The notes: generated by a model not told the origin, from the letters alone. Shown: positions 3,506 to 34,120, numbered from the stretch's first letter. The stretch is DNA of 64,000 nucleotides from Neophaeotheca triangularis (GCA_054600435.1 BAAIJX010000047.1:62001-126000), one strand, 5' to 3'. Made by a program: numbers and translations.

Positions 3506-5695
3506 ATGGGTTGGAACAACGACATGAGATGGTCTCGTCGACTGCCAATACATATATGGCCCCGACCAAGAGTGTGCCAAACCCCAGCAGAGAATGCAAT
3601 CGGTGCTCACATTGGAAATGGTTTCTATGCCGGTGACCAAGCCGATCGTTTCTTCTGGCCCCTATACGAAGACAAGATGTATGTTCGCTTTGGTAATGAG
3701 CTTTGCTTCTTTTGCGAGATCCATCTGATCTACGAAGATGGCAGCCGTCAGACTATCATCTCTGATCCGGACTGGAAGGTCAGGAGTAGCGCCACCCTAC
3801 TCGCCAACATTTATGGATCGGAGACGCATGATAGGAGGTTGTTGCCAGCCGGCTGGGACACACCCTCCTTCGACGATAGCCAATGGCCCACAGCGAAGCC
3901 GCTGACAGGGCCAAAAGGCGAACTCAGATATCAATCACAGCCTCCGATTGTGGCACACCAGACATTCGAGCCCGTCGCTGTGAACACTATCAAACCGGGA
4001 GTAGTGGTCTACGACCTTGGACAAAACGCCTCTACCATGGTTAAAATCTCTGTGTCAGGTGCAGCCGGATCCGAGGTCATCATTCGTCCGATGGAGACTG
4101 TCGACGAGAACGGCGCTGTGGTAATGCCAGATCCCCTCTTCAAGGAATTCGAGACGCATGTCTATAACAAGTTCATACTCGCCGGCACCGGAGAGGCAGA
4201 AGAATGGCAGCCCGACTTCAGCTTCACAAGCGCACGATACATCCAGATCGAAGGCGTTGCGATGCCTTTGGACCAGAACAGCTCTTCCCTCCCCGTAGTG
4301 CACTCGGCCGTGGGACAACATGTCTCTTCAGCATCCCGCCGCCTGGGCAAGGTGAGCACCGACAAAGAAGACGTTAATGCTCTGATCAACGCCTGCTTCT
4401 GGACGTACTCTTCCAACCTGCTGAGCTGGCACACCGACTGTCCGCAGATTGAAAAGTTCCCCTGGCTCGAAGTGACTCATCTTCTTTTCCCGTCCTCCCA
4501 ATACGTTTTCGACATCGAAGCACTTCACTCCAAGATTTTGCGTGATATTGTAGACGCCCAGGAGAAGAGCGGCTTCGTTCCCAATATGTCGCCTGAGATG
4601 AGGTACATGTGCGGACCAATGCGAGATACCATCACCTGGGGATGTGCCATCTGCTTCATTCCGGAAATGCTGAAGCGCTACTACGGCTCCACGCAAATGA
4701 TAGCCGCTTGCTACAAAGCAGCCAAAGCCTACATCGACCACATGCGCACCAAGGAACGAAAAGGCGGCCTGATCGAACACGGTCTGGGAGACTGGGGCCG
4801 GGATATCGCCTTTGGCAATCACCAAACCAACATCGAAAGCGCCGTCTACCACAAATGCCTCAAAAATTGCGAGATGATGGCAGAGGAGCTCGGCTACGAA
4901 AACGAAGCCCAAGACTTCAGAGCCACCGCGGAGAAAGTCTTCGACCTATACAACAAAATCCTCCTCAAGCCCCGCGATGAAAGCGCCGGCCACCCAACAG
5001 CCTTTTACACCTCCCTCGACGAGCCCGAAAAATTGGACAAAACCGCCATCAACCAAGCCGTAGCGCTGCAATTCGGCATGGTCCCGGAATCGCACATCGA
5101 AGACATTCAGCAGACCTTCCTCGCCGACGTCGCCGACTGCCGTATCCGCGCCGGCGAAATCGGCCTCCCGTACCTCTTCGCGACACTCGCGGACCTCCGG
5201 CGCCCGGACATTGTTCTCGCCATGGCGCGGCAGGAAGAGCACCCGAGCTACATGCGCTTCCTGCGACGGGGCGAGACGACGCTGCTCGAGTTCTGGCAGG
5301 ACGAGTGCCGCTCCAAGTGCCACGACATGTTGGGCACGATTTACGAGTGGTTCTACCGCGCGGTGCTGGGGTTGAAATTGACGAGTGATGCTTACAAGAC
5401 TTTTGAAGTGTTTCCGCCGTATGAGAGTGAGTTTGGCCGCGTCGAGGGTAGTGTCGAGTCGCCTTTTGGCGAGATTGCGGTTGAGTTTGAGCGCCGGGGG
5501 GAGGGGGAGAGTGTCGTCACTGTCACGGTTCCCATGAGCACGACGTGCACGCTGAAGGTGCCGAAGGGTGCGAAGGTGGAGGTTTCAAGGTATGGCCAGG
5601 TGACAAGTGCGCCGCAGGGTAAGGCTGGATCGCTGGAGTAGCGGCACGGGCAGTATTCTGTGCAGATTCGCCAAGGGGGTTCGATTTTCTCCTAG
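3506..5695 (+). pseudogene. GH78 alpha-L-rhamnosidase, apparently 5'-truncated with a probable premature TAG at 5639-5641
   Basis: GH78 motifs GNGFY, YDLGQN, TDCPQIEK.PW, GLGDW, TTLLEFW and HDMLG. Recognisable sequence starts only at about 3587 (ENAIGAHIGNG), about 130 bp from the divergent transporter ATG. In-frame RHGQYSVQI follows the TAG. Confidence 0.75.
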
Positions 5696-6772: not shown

Positions 6773-8435
6773 ATGTCTAAGGGAAACCGTGGGAAGGGAA
6801 TTCTAGAGGAGGGCTCCGATGAAGCAGAAGGCTTGGAAAGGATCGGAAATGCCTCGAACGAAGGACCGACAACGCCTCGAACGAAACGACTCGATCACCC
6901 GCAACAGGGAGATGTCAAAACCAACGCATGCCAACTTACCTGGCACCGAGGCCGCCGACAGCAGCGGGTACAACGACTTCCAGCAGCCTACTGCTCGCGG
7001 ACCTACAGCTCGCGGACCTACAGCTCGAGGTGGCGCATAGTGCGAGTTCTCGACAGCACCAACATCTCTCAAGCCATGACAAAGGGATTGAACGAGGAGC
7101 TTCAAGCTCGGGGGCGAAGCCTTCAATACCGCCCGCCCCTGGCGATGCTGACAGTCGGGTACATGCTTGCTCAGCTGCTTTCCGAACTTGCTGTTGACTC
7201 GGGTGCGGCCTTCCATCACCCTGCCGATCACCGTGATGGTATTGTCTGCCATCTCGACTTGTACGGGATGTGGGTTCGCTGATTGCGGTTCGTTTCTTCC
7301 TTGGGGTTGGAGAAAGCGCCTTTCATTCCCGGTGTAAGGAATAGTCGGATCTCGACGCAATTATTCTGCAGACGTGCTCTCTAGGCCGTCTATCTCATGT
7401 CGTGCTGGTACAGACGCGAAGAGCTTTCTATGATGTACTCCGGTCTCTGTCGTCGCTCAAGCAGTCTTGGGCTGACTAGCCTACGGCATCTTCGACGACA
7501 TGGAAGGTCTGGCCGGTCTCCGGGGTTGACAAAGGCTTTGCTCTGATGAGCCCGGGCCTGCGCATTGGTGGTGTTTGTCACGTTGCCCGATTTTGCGCAC
7601 TCTCGTGCCGGTGCACAACGCTGGTTCTCGAGCCGTGATGAGCGCCGACGAGCTGAGGCTCGCATGGAAGCTGATCGTGTAACGGGTACGACGGGCCGTG
7701 GCACGATTGTCGACGGCCTCAAGTTGGCCACGAGGGACAAGAAGCTGTACGCTTTTGCGAGCGGTCTATGCTCCCGGTCCTTCATCCCCTTAATCGCTAA
7801 TCGTAGCCTTCCTCCCCCCAGACAATGCTAAACCCCTGCGGCACCACCGCATACGGCTTCAACCCTTACTTCCCTATCCTAGTCACGGGGCTCGGCATCG
7901 TGGAAGACGACACCCTAGCTTTATTCTCCACCTCACCACCCTACGTCCTGGGCGCAATCGTAGCCGCAACCATAGCCTGGAACAGCGACCGCAACCAAGA
8001 ACGCGGCTATCACGTCGCCATCAGCCTGAGTGCAGCCGCCGTCGGCTTCGCCATGTCCGTCTCTAGCAACCGACACAGCTGTCCGCTACGCGTGCTCCTT
8101 TTCCCTCGCGGGCGGGGCGTTTGCGGCCAACGCGCTCATCTACTAGTACTAATGGGCTATGAGCTCGCTGAAGCGCGAGAGGGAGAAACGGGCAGCTGGT
8201 GGCGCGATTGTTAATATTGTCGGACATATTGGGAACACCGGACCGCCGTACTTTTATCCGTGCGCATGAGGGGCCGATATACCGGACGGCGTTTTATCTT
8301 GATGCTTGGCGTTTGCGGTTGTCTCTGCGACAATGGCGGTGGGGACGGAGTGGTATCTCAAGAGGCAGAATGTTGAGATTTGGACTGTGGCTGGTGAGAC
8401 TGGTGTGTTTTACTTACAGCCCTTTTACTACTTGA
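6773..8435 (+). pseudogene. Degraded MFS anion:cation symporter (allantoate/nicotinate permease-like)
   Basis: Fragments in different frames: LDSTNISQA...GLNEEL, VGYMLAQL, LSCWYRREEL, LPDF, YGFNPYFP.LV.GLG, SPPYV, WNSDRNQERGYH, EKRAAGGAIVNIVGHIGN. They are separated by frameshifts and in-frame stops. The 5' limit is uncertain. Confidence 0.8.
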
Positions 8436-11400
8436 TAATTTTTTTTTGCGGGGGGCTTGGACTGCGAGCAGAGTTGGCAATCTTGGTCTGTCGTCGTAAC
8501 CCAAAACCTTGTTGCTTCCGTTGTGAGATGGAACGTGACGCGGGAAAGCAACGTCTTAACTTACCCGTACGCCCCTTCCAAGCAACGTGCTGCCGGCTTC
8601 GCTGCTAGATGGCACGGGACTCACCAGCTGGGTGTGTGCTTCGGGTAGGTGCGAATGTCGTTCAGTAGTGACCGCCACATAACGCGCACAATTGAAGCGT
8701 CGCTTGGACCTTTTCGGACTCCGCTTTGCTAAAAGGTTGGGTTTAACGAAGACATGTGTGAAGCGAGTTATGATCCTATATTTAGCAGTTTGTGCGGCGC
8801 GTTGCCATCCAGCACTCTATGATAGTGCCCTAGACGTAGGTCTGACAAAGGCTGCTTACTATCGCAGGCCACGGAGATAGTACGTGACGGCGTGGGCAGA
8901 ATCCGGCATTTCGCACTGCCGTTATAATTGCACAAACACCCATATAACCAGCTTAGCGAGTGCCAGTTGACTCTTAGCCCATCCGGCAGAAAAGACTGCA
9001 CCATAGAGTCGACCTCCGGCTCTCAAGAATTGAGGACCACTTCGACTTACCATTCTCACCGCCGATTGCGCCACACCTCAGCGGCCACGGACAAAGCACG
9101 CCGTACCGAGCATGGAAAATGCGAGACTTCAAAGGCAAGCCGTCCGCGTGCCTTGCATGTCACCTGTAACGCTGTCGTGACATGTCCATCGCATCGATGA
9201 CATGTTACCTTGGCGGAAGCAGGCACTGTAACGATTTCGTGAATCCCCGGCGGTGGTTTGTGGATACTCTAGCGGGAACTCGAGATGTACGGTAAAGCAC
9301 ATTCGTAAAGAAGAGTTCAGACAACTCGGGTTTGCTGGCAAGATATCAGCGATGTTCCACGCTCGCGATCCACATATTTGCCATGCGCAAGCGACATGGG
9401 GTCCACGAGGGCGCTTTGCGATGATGAGCGCTGAGTGGGAGGGGCTGGGACTAGACAGCCGGTTGTTGCACAAGAAGCTGGAAGCGCGGGTGAGAGGAGG
9501 ATGCGGTGGAACGGGTTCTGGATCATCTGGCATTGAGTCCTGGGGACGGCGGTAATAATAAGACAGTGCCGTTGATGCCATGGCACAGTAGTCTTGGGTG
9601 TGTCAGCCTTTTGAGACCTCGGCCGTTGTAGTACTCGCTCGGTTCTACTTTCGCAAGGTGTGCAATCCCCGTGGCTGGGCTTGCTGCTTTTTGGTGGCTC
9701 CGCGAGAAGACAAAGTGGCATTGTGAAAGGGTAAGGTATTTCACCACCTGTCACGGAGGATGATGATATTATTGTATGAGATCCATGTCGTTGGGGGTAA
9801 GGCAGCAAGGCAGCCAATGAAAAAGACGTCGCAAGCAGAGTTTATTAGAAGCGGGAGGAGCAGGACGGACCCGGGACCTCCGACAGTAGGTAGTCGGAAA
9901 CACGCGGGTGCCAAGCCCAAAGATTAGGCGACGCAGGGGTTGCTGTCGGGTACTGGAGGTACCGTCGGGTGTGTAACGACGGAACGACATGGTTTTTCCT
10001 TCTCGTGGCGACGTGGGTGTACAGTATGGTAGAATGGGTATAGGAGAGGAGTGAGATGACCACGCCCCGCGCACACGGATCTTGGTTGACTTACAGGTAA
10101 TGTCTCGTTATGACTTCCAATTAGAGGTATTGTCGTAATCGAAAATAGAGTAAGGTACCGTAACTTACATTACCCCACGTGACGCACGTGCCAGGCCTGC
10201 ACTTTCTCCTCTTTTCTGAATTCTCGCTGTTCATCCGCCGACCACAGACCATCCTGAACCTCGTCGCGCCTCCAATCACCGCCTTCGAGCCTCTCATTCG
10301 CCAACCCCATCGACCACCCACCAATAGTGAGCCATCCTCTCAGACACCCGCCGTCTCCACGATACACGATATCGATAGACACGCCGCCATTCTAATAAGA
10401 CACGAACACTACCTGCTGTAAGTACCAATTGCCCCTCTCCCCCCCCATCAGGACACGCCGCGCGCGTAACGTGATTGCGAATGGATGCGTGATGAGCGAA
10501 CAAGGAGCGCGACGGCCATAGCAGTGCCGCGTACTGGAGAGAGGCGGACCTTCAAGGCGCAGCTAGCAATATGGAATGACATCGACGACAACGACACAGC
10601 AAGCAAGCAATCTGGAACGCATGGCAGCTCTCACATGCGACCAGATGAATTGCCATTGCCTGTCGCGTCGCAATCGTCGCCACCCATCATCGCACACCGT
10701 GTGTCCTGTCAAAGCTGCCTGCCGCTTTCGACAACATCGACCCAGCAGATGCGCCAACCCGCGTGCGTGGCGAAACCGCCGTCACAGAGCCAGCGCAAAG
10801 GATCGCACGCGTCTAGAATCATGTCGCTGGCAGAAGGAGCAGCTCGCGCAGAGGGACGCCTTTGATCCAGAAAGCCCGTCACTCGATGCGCTGGCCGCCT
10901 CGATCGCGAAGCTGCCGCTGCCGCCGGTGACGGTTTATGCGCTGGCATTGCGCCAATACCTGCGCCTTTCCACCACCACTGCTCCGGGACCCCGCCGCGC
11001 CTCGCCTGCTTCTTCTCATCATGTATTCATTCGCTCGCAAGCACCGCGTGTCTCTCGCCTGTCGTTCTGCCTGTGACCGAGCTAATTGCTTTGTCCAGCT
11101 TTCCTGCTCAGACCGCGAATCAGGCCTCTCGAGCCGGACGAAAGCGTCGTTGAGTGGTACGCCTCTCAGCATTTACCTCATCACCCCTGCCCTGTCCCCT
11201 AGCTTGTCACTGCCACGCGCACTACCTTCTTCAAGTCACGGCCGTCTGCGAGGTACCTCACTTTGTTTGCAAGCTATCGCCGTCAGCTTGCATCCAAAGC
11301 GGTCGAGTAAGGCTCGCTCGCTGTTCACCTACATGCATGGGCGCATTGCTGCTATACTCACTTAGCTGCGCGTATTGGGCCGCAAGAAGCAACGCTAATA

Positions 11401-20024: not shown

Positions 20025-20633
20025 GCTTTAAGGTTGGCCCACTCAAGGTGCGAAGGTGCGGTGTCTTGGGATGGGAGTGGTGGTTTGGAATTGGGTGAGT
20101 GAGTGGGCTGGGTTTGGACCGGAGGGTTGGAGGGTCGGTAAGGATGGAAGGGGAGTCTAGTGTGGGATTGTGTATTTTTTTCAAACCCTGTGTAGAATAC
20201 GTTTTTGACCCTTTTCGACAGTCATGAAGAAGGGAGGCTTGACGTGACATGCGGTGATGCATCACCACTTTCAGCCAGGATTGGATTCGTACCTTTCCCG
20301 CAGCAGCCCTTGCAGCATCGTCAGAGTTGATTGATTGGTAAGATTCGTCTTCTAAAGCCACCTCCTATTCCGAGTCATGGTTCTATTCACAAGTCCAATT
20401 TGACTACTACTGTCACAACGATGCTTGGCGCTGTAGCTCCAAGACCGCAGCTCAAAGTTCCGCGGCATGCCTTCCCCATCGAGCGTCTGATATCAGACTT
20501 CATCACCAGCAACGCGGTACCTCACTCGATCCAACAATGATCGCTCTCCAACTAGCACTCTCGTGTCTAGCAGCCTACGGCGCGTACTTGAGGTGAGCTG
20601 CCACTCGCACCAAACAAAAACCACGCGCCCTCC

Positions 20634-21939
20634 ATGCCCTCTCGCAATGCCCTCCTCCTCCATCACGCTCTGAAGCCGCACTACTCCCTCGCCCACTCCC
20701 CAATCTGCCGCGCATCTGTCGCTGGAACTCTCAACAGTTACATGTCGCCCACGCTCTGGAAGACGGGCGCTCTGAGCACGTCGATGCGTTCCTTGTCCTC
20801 CGCCAGCCAGCCCTCCTTCACCTACCGCATAGCAGCCGCTTCGGCGGGGAAAAAGACGCCCGCTCGCCCCCCAAAAGCGGGTAGAGATTTCTGGAACTAC
20901 AGCTCTGTGCACGAAAACCCTACGCCGCCTTATTTGCGCTCGAGCAAGAAGGACTCCGGCGAGGATGCTTTCTTCGCGACGACAGTAGGTGCGAGCAAGA
21001 ATCACGTCGCTTTTGGTCTAGCGGACGGGGTGGGTGGATGGCAGGATTCGGGTGTGGATCCTTCGGATTTTAGTCACGGGTTGTGTGGTTTGATGGCGGG
21101 GACTGCGCAGTTACATGAGGGGTTGGCTGAGGGGAAGAATGTGAGGCCCAGGGAGTTGATGCAGACGGCTTATGATGCTGTGTTGGGGAATCCCAGGATT
21201 TTGGCAGGAGGGAGCACGGCTACGGTGGGTGTGTTGGGGGAGAAGGGGGGTTTGGAAGCTGCCAAGTAGGTGCGCCCGCAAAAATGTTGATGGAGAGCAG
21301 GTTGTACTGACATGGGCCTACAGTTTGGGCGACTCCGGCTTCCTGATCATCGGACCTGGCAAGGTGACTTATCGCAGCGAAGCACAGACACATGCCTTCA
21401 ACACGCCTTACCAACTCTCCAAAGTGCCAGCCAAGATGCAAGCGCAACACGCCATCTTCGGGGGCTCCGCACACTTTAGCGAAACGCCTAAACAAGCTGA
21501 TGTAACGACCCACCAACTCCGCCACGGCGACATCGTCCTCTTTGCAACAGACGGAGTATGGGACAACTTATCTGCGCAAGACACTCTCGGCGTTGTTACG
21601 AAAGTGATGGAAGAGAACGGATACTGGTTCAAGAGCCACAATTTCGCGGGCGCCGAGACTATGCTGAATACTTCTATGATCAACAATATCGCCGGGACTC
21701 TGTCGAAGAAGGGGGAAGAGAGCTTTCTTCCCAGCCAAGTCGCTGCCGCTGTTGCACGAGAAGCTAAGTTGGCTGGCCTGGACCCGAGGCGCGAGGGGCC
21801 TTTTGCAAAGGAGGTGAAGAGGAATTTCCCTGGTGAAGCTTGGGAGGGTGGCAAGCCGGATGATATTGCTGTGGTTGTTTGTGTTGCCGTTGAAGATGGG
21901 CAGGGTGAGTCGGAGAAGCCGATTAAAGCCAAGCTTTGA
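20634..21939 (+). CDS. PTC7: PP2C-family phosphatase, Ptc7-like, probably mitochondrial
   Basis: Motifs GEDAFF, GLADGVGGW, GGSTA, ANLGDSGF (across intron 21266-21323), QTHAFNTPYQL, ATDGVWDNL and GGKPDDI. Confidence 0.92.
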
Positions 21940-22536
21940 GGCATCAAGCTAGAAGGATCTTCGAATCGAATGAACCGCAAGGCTGGTGTGGCCTTGGGCA
22001 TGTTGCGGCGTGCGGACCGTTCTCTGCGGAAGGGGAACAAGGTGTCGGCTCTAAGCTACACATCCTTCTGTGAGCGTGGGTCACGCCCAGCAAGTTCAAG
22101 GCGCGTTGATGATCACGGGTGCGAACCTGACACTTGAGTTAGGAAAGCAGAAACGGCTCGCTCTGTAGGGAGACGGCTGAATGGATAGAACGCAGCGGCG
22201 CAGCGGCTGGGGAGGTTGGACACGGGTTCGGACTTGGCTCTTGGAGATGTCGGAACAGAGCCATGAGAAAGTCAAGGCTAGGTAGCCGAGGGATATACTC
22301 GAGAAAAGGGGTGATTCCCTCTGAAACAACAGTAGAGGCAGGAGCAAAAGGCAAAAAATCAGCTTCGCAATCAACACAGTACCCACGCCCAGTAAACCCC
22401 AGTCCTCACCCAGTCTTAACCAGCTACCAACTTACCAACCCCCTTTCTCCCGTCCCATGAATTTGATTTCAAATAATATATTCAACACCACCACTCGGAA
22501 ACCCATCATCAAACCACTCTTCAGGGTACACGGTCG

Positions 22537-22597
22537 GTACGTGCTTAGACTCCACAATCCCACCGAGTCCACACCGGACACTAACAAATCTCTGAAG
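22537..22597 (+). other. Spliceosomal-type intron 1 of tRNA-Ile (61 nt, acceptor stem between nt 5 and 6)
   Basis: 5' GTACGT, branch site ACTAAC at 22580-22585, 3' AAG at 22595-22597. Confidence 0.82.
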
Positions 22598-22610
22598 GTT
22601 AGCTCAGTTG

Positions 22611-22679
22611 GTTCGTCGTCCGCTCATCGCATAATTGCTCCATCACTTTCGGACTGTGATTTTCTAACAATTGCCAAAG
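22611..22679 (+). other. Spliceosomal-type intron 2 of tRNA-Ile (69 nt, D-loop between G18 and G19)
   Basis: 5' GTTCGT, branch site CTAAC at 22664-22668, 3' AAG at 22677-22679. Confidence 0.87.
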
Positions 22680-22738
22680 GTTAGAGCGTGGTGCTAATAA
22701 CGCCAAGGTCGCGAGTTCGACCCTCGTACTGACCATTG

Positions 22739-22751
22739 TTTTTATGTTTTT
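22739..22751 (+). terminator. RNA polymerase III terminator-like oligo-T tracts
   Basis: TTTTTATGTTTTT begins 4 nt after the tRNA discriminator base. Confidence 0.7.
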
Positions 22752-23164
22752 GCTTGCTTGCGGACGGATTGGTTTTGGTTTTGGTTTTGGTTCGCGTTTT
22801 GTGAGGGGCATGAGGTTTTGTGTTTCGTTTGGTCTTGTGGGCTGCGTTGTGCGGGGGGGGGGTTTTTTTTTTTGTTCTGGCAGAGTGCGTTAGGGGCAAG
22901 TCTCGGATTTAGCCGAGAAGGAGAGTCATGCATGGGGTTCGCGCGAATGGTGCTTTGTGTCGCCAGTGCGGATTGAGGTTGTAATTTGCGTTGTCGTGGA
23001 AGATGAAGCTGGTCTTGAACGTTGATCACTATTTATAAGAGCTAATACCTAGAAAGGGTACCGGCAAGAAATCATCTGAATTTTGTACCGGTATCAGATA
23101 TCCCAAGTCCGACAGACGATGCCAGCCTTGACTAATGCCTTTGCATACACCCGGCACTGCTCAA

Positions 23165-33812: not shown

Positions 33813-34120
33813 GGTTCCGTATCTCAATCAGACGACAAGAAGAGTGTGACGGGAAGAAAGTCGACAGACTGGACTTATATTGCACACAGAATCGACTCGA
33901 GCACATATAACTTATATATATATACATATATCGTTGCACGAGAAAGAGTTGGAAGGAACAGGCAGAAGGCAGCAGCCTGGTCTGTGTACCGTGTAGCAAA
34001 GTGCCTTCCTATTCCGGCTAGACTCGGGCACTCCAGACGTCCTTGTACAGGGCAGCACTCACCCCCAACCATCGACAACCCACCATGGGTTGATATAGAT
34101 CTCTCCCCCGCTCGCCTCTC

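Follow-up and report, generated by a model that had tools for sequence, protein, structure and literature searches.

According to the textbook account, tRNA genes carry an internal promoter that measures the start site of transcription, and the excision of their introns falls to a dedicated endonuclease and ligase rather than to the spliceosome. The occurrence of mRNA-type introns in RNA genes that are not transcribed by Pol II is already known, the best-known instance being fungal U6. Such introns have been described in the U6 snRNA genes of S. pombe and other fungi (Tani and Ohshima 1989, 1991; Canzler et al. 2016; all as quoted in extracts from PMC5855946), and the U6 RNA of S. pombe is spliced by the spliceosome after its 3' end has been processed (PMC5855946; bioRxiv 10.1101/2023.01.27.525755). 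Ascomycete rRNA genes, too, have been described as containing spliceosomal introns (Bhattacharya et al. 2000, as quoted in extracts from PMC5855946). Here we describe a nuclear tRNA-Ile(AAU) gene of an ascomycete, Neophaeotheca triangularis, which is split by two spliceosomal-type introns with GT-AG ends and CTAAC branch boxes. Like the fungal U6 genes, it encodes a small RNA and possesses both an A box and a B box, an upstream TATA-like element, and canonical introns (one to four in U6); unlike them, it has a tRNA as its product, and one of its introns lies between the 5' end of the RNA and the A box. As a tRNA is no component of the spliceosome, the introns here cannot be accounted for by reverse splicing at the catalytic centre. 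With the ascomycete rRNA genes it shares the presence of mRNA-type introns in a structural RNA gene of a class not made by Pol II; the rRNA genes, however, are transcribed by Pol I from a promoter that is external, and they are therefore free of any conflict between the placement of introns and the geometry of the promoter.

The nature of this conflict follows from the layout of the internal promoter. The consensus sequences given in extracts from PMC7279448 are TRGYnnARBGG for the A box and GGTTCRAnYCY for the B box, and the same extracts put the A box at positions of about +12 to +22 relative to the start of transcription. The A box at this fixed distance sets the start site by way of the tauA ruler, and the natural spacers between the A and B boxes in yeast range from 31 to 93 bp (PMC11724288). 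Some Pol III genes combine the internal boxes with a TATA box at about -30. In S. pombe and plants these are tRNA and 5S genes, the element being located at -30/-24 in the tRNA genes (Hamada et al. 2001, in extracts from PMC7279448), and the 5S genes of Neurospora are likewise reported to need it (Tyler 1987). The locus described here combines internal boxes with a candidate TATA-like element; however, in those TATA-dependent genes, as far as these extracts describe them, the A box is at its normal distance, whereas here the AT-rich element is about 120 bp upstream of it. The vertebrate selenocysteine tRNA gene, as far as it is covered by extracts from PMC7279448, has its start fixed by an upstream TATA box instead of the A-box ruler, but it is devoid of introns and uses a type 3 promoter that lies wholly upstream, with PSE and DSE elements bound by SNAPc. 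A start fixed by an upstream TATA-like element is likewise what we propose for the present locus. To our knowledge, PSE and DSE elements bound by SNAPc are not known in fungi.

Two further systems offer partial parallels. The tRNA genes of Cyanidioschyzon, nucleomorphs, and archaea, including permuted ones, have introns outside position 37/38, among other places in the D arm and the acceptor stem, and are missed by gene finders; however, in the extracts of PMC3978253 that describe them, those introns are cut by the tRNA endonuclease at bulge-helix-bulge (BHB) motifs, whereas the introns considered here show no BHB and bear spliceosomal signals. The RNase P RNA of insects and crustaceans is a precedent for a Pol III RNA changing its polymerase; as described in extracts from PMC6797745, that RNA resides inside an intron of a Pol II gene, in contrast to the tRNA described here, which would be assembled from exons. 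The tRNA introns described in a preprint on Mesodinium are non-spliceosomal. A full-text literature search, with a coverage lying mostly outside the subscription journals, returned no report of spliceosomal introns in tRNA genes.

Structure and detection of the split gene

The window, i.e., the whole stretch of DNA that was analysed, comprises 64,000 nt of the N. triangularis assembly (GCA_054600435.1 BAAIJX010000047.1:62001-126000), and all coordinates are counted from its first letter. Reading of the sequence in combination with ARAGORN resolves the gene into three exons of 5, 13, and 56 nt at 22532-22735 on the plus strand (Table 1). When both introns are deleted, ARAGORN calls a single perfect 74-nt tRNA-Ile(aat) with all 74 tRNA positions intact and a cloverleaf whose acceptor stem has 7 bp, one of them a G-U pair. 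On the unspliced genomic DNA of the 64-kb window, the same program reports no tRNA, with its intron option either on or off. Rfam likewise yields no match at gathering score anywhere in the window, the tRNA model giving only a partial match at 22673-22727 with 23.9 bits, which is below its gathering score of 29. No further tRNA genes, split or whole, and no other Pol III genes were found in the window with ARAGORN and with Rfam at E up to 5. A match to the FMN riboswitch at 3751-3881 on the minus strand (Rfam, E = 4.2, with 19.7 bits where the gathering score is 66.2) was discarded as most likely due to chance.

The introns fall at tRNA positions 5/6, in the acceptor stem, and 18/19. Exon 1 together with the two bases that follow it is complementary to the 3' acceptor strand; 7-mers that can pair with this strand, G-U pairs allowed, occur 14 times on the plus strand of the window. 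Exon 2 is a micro-exon whose extent is nearly that of the A box; the two introns bracket this box and neither of them cuts it. With only two introns such bracketing is not statistically meaningful, since by our estimate it has about a one-in-two chance of arising anyway.

The gene occupies a 1.2-kb spacer between two convergent genes. The upstream neighbour (20592-21939, plus strand) consists of two ORF pieces that are probably joined by a 58-nt intron at 21266-21323; neither piece matches a Pfam family at E up to 0.001, and motifs recognized by eye are reminiscent of the PTC7-type PP2C phosphatases. The downstream neighbour, on the minus strand and ending at about 23165, is a TauD-family gene coding for a TauD/GBBH-like protein, whose nearest atlas clusters are mostly found in Ascomycota.

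Table 1. Features of the split tRNA-Ile(AAU) locus, numbered from the first letter of the window
Feature	Coordinates	Strand	Description
A/T-only 12-mer AAATAATATATT with TATA-like TATATT	22471-22482	+	candidate core element; 50-61 nt upstream of the mature 5' end
Expected TATA-directed start zone	22500-22512	+	would lie about 25-35 nt past the TATA-like element, as predicted from the -30/-24 TATA position in extracts from PMC7279448; several CA dinucleotides; predicted leader of about 20-32 nt
Exon 1	22532-22536	+	5 nt; tRNA positions 1-5; 5' strand of acceptor stem
Intron 1	22537-22597	+	61 nt; GTACGT 5' site; ACTAAC branch box at 22580-22585; 3' end AAG
Expected A-box-measured Pol III start zone	22580-22590	+	within intron 1, from the branch box onward; predicted from PMC11724288 and extracts from PMC7279448
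Exon 2	22598-22610	+	13-nt micro-exon; tRNA positions 6-18, i.e., 2 nt plus the A box minus its last base
A box TAGCTCAGTTGG	22600-22611	+	contiguous in genomic DNA; matches TRGYnnARBGG
Intron 2	22611-22679	+	69 nt; GTTCGT 5' site; CTAAC branch box at 22664-22668; 3' end AAG
Exon 3	22680-22735	+	56 nt; remainder of D arm, anticodon arm (AAT), T arm, 3' acceptor strand, discriminator A
B box AGTTCGACCCT	22714-22724	+	10 of 11 positions of GGTTCRAnYCY
T5 run	22739-22743	+	candidate Pol III terminator; begins 4 nt past discriminator base 22735
Second T5 run	22747-22751	+	candidate back-up terminator
T11 run	22863-22873	+	follows G9; possible fail-safe terminator

Spliceosomal signals in both introns

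All six splice signals are intact across the two introns, and the distance remaining from the branch box to the 3' end is nearly the same in both (12 nt in intron 1 and 11 nt in intron 2). We counted, on both strands of the window and with the two introns included, the segments that start with GTNNGT, have AG as their last two bases, and contain a CTRAY motif at 5-30 nt before the end: this combination is found in 3 of 127,878 61-mers and in 1 of 127,862 69-mers, the latter being intron 2 alone. Candidate introns elsewhere in the window are of the same kind, e.g., 58-70 nt in length with a GTAAGT, GTATGT, or GTACGT start and a branch box 8-15 nt from the end, where the candidates compared are those that join two ORFs of at least 60 codons and were called from the sequence independently of homology. 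Judged by these signals, both inserts are spliceosomal in type (U2-type GT-AG), and we infer that they would be excised in the RNA.

Direct repeats flank both introns, namely GGT at 22536-22538 and 22597-22599 for intron 1 and GGTT at 22610-22613 and 22679-22682 for intron 2. As these repeats are present at both junctions, the intron boundaries can slide by 2-4 nt (up to 2 nt in intron 1) and leave the spliced product unchanged; to the same repeats the gene owes the fact that both the A box and the acceptor stem are whole in genomic DNA. The junction repeats are compatible with introns that entered at G|GT proto-splice sites, or else with a target-site duplication of small size. There is no likeness between intron 1 and intron 2, and neither of them has a second copy in the 64-kb window, which is too small for excluding a genome-wide family. 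Their mutual dissimilarity and the lack of another copy in the window speak against a fresh origin of both from the same mobile element.

The longest T run in the introns is a T4 at 22660-22663 in intron 2. We considered the absence of T5 from the introns as possible evidence for Pol III transcription and rejected it, as only 2 of 30 candidate intron 5' sites elsewhere had a T5.

Displacement of the A-box-measured start

The A box is contiguous in the DNA because its last G is at the same time the first base of intron 2 (22611). At 102 nt, the spacer between the two boxes slightly exceeds the 31-93 bp that occur naturally in yeast. The fact that the introns leave the A box uncut and the B box whole speaks for a Pol III gene; the presence of the two boxes as such is silent on the polymerase, since the structure of the tRNA requires both of them anyway. 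Intron 1 separates the mature 5' end (22532) from the beginning of the A box (22600) by 68 nt, and a start measured from the A box in the usual way would thus fall within the intron, downstream of exon 1. Exon 1 would therefore be left untranscribed and the acceptor stem could not form. Judged from the sequence, the promoter paradox is thus real: the usual A-box-measured start cannot give a working tRNA here. No substitute A box is present between 22440 and 22599, and a loose pseudo-A-box motif, TNGNNNANNNG, searched over 22440-22611, matches only the real A box. An earlier sequence-only reading of this DNA had drawn attention to much of this geometry, viz., an A box surviving in the genome by virtue of the G with which intron 2 starts, a mature 5' end about 68 nt before the A box, and a usual start landing in intron 1, as well as to the B box, the T5 terminator, introns free of any run of five or more T, and an AT-rich stretch near 22471-22482; our analysis recovers each of these elements where it had placed them, the AT-rich stretch at exactly these coordinates. 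The two ways out of the paradox that it had named, a TATA-directed upstream start of Pol III and a Pol II precursor, are both retained below as candidate explanations.

The upstream AT-rich element and the downstream T runs

The AT-rich stretch upstream of exon 1 is a candidate core element for TBP/TFIIIB, or alternatively for Pol II. It is not a canonical TATAAA. A/T-only runs of at least 12 nt occur at 3 loci in the 64 kb, this being one of them, and runs of at least 10 nt at 8 loci, of which 2 flank the tRNA gene. The other two runs of at least 12 nt, at 33912-33924 and 8435-8447, are a (TA)n run and an ATAAT9 tract. The rarity of the 12-mer and the lack of a substitute A box both speak for an upstream start. 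Its position 50-61 nt ahead of exon 1 would suit an element bound by TBP that directs a start some 20-30 nt upstream of the mature 5' end. Since the gap of about 120 bp between this element and the A box is far greater than the tauA distance, a placement assisted by TFIIIC would need looping of the DNA or would not apply.

At the other end of the gene, no T5 occurs between 22483 and 22738, the longest T run there being a T4, and the first T5 follows almost directly upon the discriminator base. On the plus strand of the window, 0.75% of the positions have a run of at least five T starting within the next 10 nt. However, the downstream flank is T-rich overall (34% T and 31% G), because of which the terminator statistic weakens to an estimated few per cent. 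This G/T-rich flank also contains a (GGTTTT)n-like microsatellite at 22771-22795 and the G9T11 tract at 22854-22873. A T5 terminator is meaningful only for Pol III, and its presence therefore favours transcription by Pol III from an upstream element. Taken together, the rare AT-only element and the T5-T5-T11 series would lean toward Pol III.

Proposed transcription by Pol III from an upstream start

We tentatively propose, at a probability that approaches but does not reach an even one, that this is still a Pol III gene, whose start would be set by the upstream AT-rich TATA-like element instead of the A-box ruler of TFIIIC. In this proposal, TBP-Brf1 (TFIIIB) would bind the AT-rich element and fix the start, while TFIIIC on the B box, and perhaps on the A box, would help only in recruitment, comparable to promoters of the U6 type or the fission yeast type. 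Transcription would start in the zone predicted from the TATA-like element, cross both T5-free introns, and stop at the T5 runs (22739-22751) to give a precursor of about 240 nt. The spliceosome would then remove both introns, as it does with the Pol III-made U6 of fission yeast, and RNase P and RNase Z would trim the ends. Against this proposal, Pol III transcripts have been reported to be poor splicing substrates in animal cells. We infer the polymerase, the start site, and the occurrence of splicing alike.

A search of RNA runs for words of the locus found them in two marine metatranscriptomes only, with small shares of 0.07 and 0.06.

Predicted fold of the unspliced precursor

The sequence-only reading had further held that splicing is needed before RNase P/Z can see an acceptor stem, and on the need of splicing for such a stem the predicted fold of the unspliced RNA does not support it. 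The first two bases of intron 1 (GT) repeat tRNA positions 6-7 and thereby complete the acceptor stem even in the unspliced state, 22532-22538 pairing with 22728-22734 at a predicted probability of 1.0. In the same fold, three more intron bases are paired with the 3' strand of the T stem (probabilities of 1.0, 1.0, and 0.68). The 5' splice site of intron 1 thus falls within a predicted 10-bp helix, 22532-22541/22725-22734, formed with the 3' side of the acceptor stem together with a portion of the T stem. Folding of the precursor and binding of U1 would, on this model, compete for the 5' splice site of intron 1.

Alternative explanations

Among the alternatives to Pol III transcription from an upstream start, the one that survives best is a Pol II precursor, which we regard as unlikely though by no means negligible. 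Here, the AT-rich element would be the Pol II TATA box of a small non-coding gene, the transcript would be capped and spliced co-transcriptionally, and RNase P and RNase Z would cut the tRNA from the spliced exons, with the degradation of the downstream piece ending transcription. The full complement of spliceosomal signals in both introns, the position of the first intron near the 5' end, where a cap would aid its recognition, and the spacing of the TATA-like element ahead of exon 1 are consistent with such a gene. The predicted fold points in the same direction: as completion of the 3' end would hide the intron 1 5' splice site in a helix, early co-transcriptional loading of the spliceosome would be favoured, which is a trait of Pol II. 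Yet the spliceosome can work without Pol II, as the U6 of S. pombe illustrates, and the T5 located 4 nt past the end of the tRNA, the second T5, and the T11 would have no role in a Pol II gene. Precedents exist in part: in insects, RNase P RNA, which is classically a product of Pol III, has come to be made by Pol II (PMC6797745, in the extracts used above), and tRNAs have been processed from engineered Pol II transcripts (as described in extracts from PMC6445147); however, our literature search found no natural cytoplasmic tRNA that is made by Pol II.

A second alternative, which we judge distinctly improbable, is that the gene is dead or silent, with an A-box-ruled Pol III start in intron 1 giving a useless 5'-truncated RNA, or with no transcription at all. 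It would then have been recently disabled by intron-like insertions, and other copies would supply tRNA-Ile(AAU). The start expected from the tauA ruler, at about 22580-22590, is as this explanation would have it, and the GGT/GGTT junction repeats would fit a recent insertion at the DNA level. Scans of metagenome contigs also yielded no relatives that could support purifying selection or a conservation of the AT element, the introns, or the T runs: a pattern for an Ile(AAU) gene in which the A box is followed by an intron of 44-74 nt had no match, and a second pattern, requiring a branch box and a 3' site immediately ahead of the A-box region, was matched at 5 loci. We rejected these as relatives, since all 5 are tRNA genes of the ordinary, unsplit kind in which a CTAAC lies upstream by chance. 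Against a dead gene stand the integrity of all six splice signals and all 74 tRNA positions, the dissimilarity of the introns to each other and their single occurrence in the window, which set them apart from fresh copies of one mobile element, and the occurrence of a rare AT-only element and a T5 terminator at fitting places.

It is very improbable that the tRNA lies in a long 3' extension of the upstream plus-strand gene and is released from that Pol II transcript by read-through: the two are indeed on the same strand, with the tRNA 593 nt past the stop of the upstream ORF and no gene between them, but 593 nt is long for a fungal 3' UTR, and the rare AT-only element and the T runs suggest an independent unit.

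Finally, the inserts could be non-spliceosomal and be removed by the tRNA splicing endonuclease at BHB motifs, as in the tRNA genes of red algae, nucleomorphs, and archaea, where endonuclease-type introns at non-canonical positions such as 5/6 and 18/19 are known (extracts from PMC3978253), but this is scarcely credible given the complete GT, CTAAC, and AG signals at fungal spacing in both inserts and the fact that no BHB was found at the junctions, the cut sites that restore the tRNA scoring only 8/12 and 9/12 pairs, i.e., at the level of chance (among 5000 random sites per test, 21% and 7.6%, respectively, scored at least as high), with the central helix of the intron 2 candidate consisting of four G-U pairs. 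When scored without constraint on the cut sites, both introns reach 10/12, but those cuts cannot restore the tRNA.

Implications

Whichever polymerase is involved, we see the balance as even on the broader proposition that this tRNA gene has been rewired twice, with a spliceosomal intron in the acceptor stem uncoupling the 5' end from the A-box ruler, and an external TATA-like promoter, at which Pol III or conceivably even Pol II would act, driving the synthesis of a tRNA that would come into being only if the spliceosome joined its three exons, the 13-nt micro-exon among them. What this locus adds is the intron upstream of the A box, which turns the relationship between introns and internal promoters into a concrete promoter problem. 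The locus breaks the geometry of the internal-promoter rule and, if it is expressed, the rule that tRNA introns belong to the endonuclease as well. If Pol II makes it, it would be the first natural cytoplasmic tRNA made by this polymerase, as far as our literature search reaches. The locus provides a test case for how far the placement of TFIIIB can be uncoupled from the A box, for whether the spliceosome serves Pol III transcripts besides U6, and for the order of splicing and end-trimming in a precursor where the 5' splice site is one half of the acceptor stem. As standard tRNA finders miss split genes of this kind, the tRNA gene sets of fungi may be undercounted.
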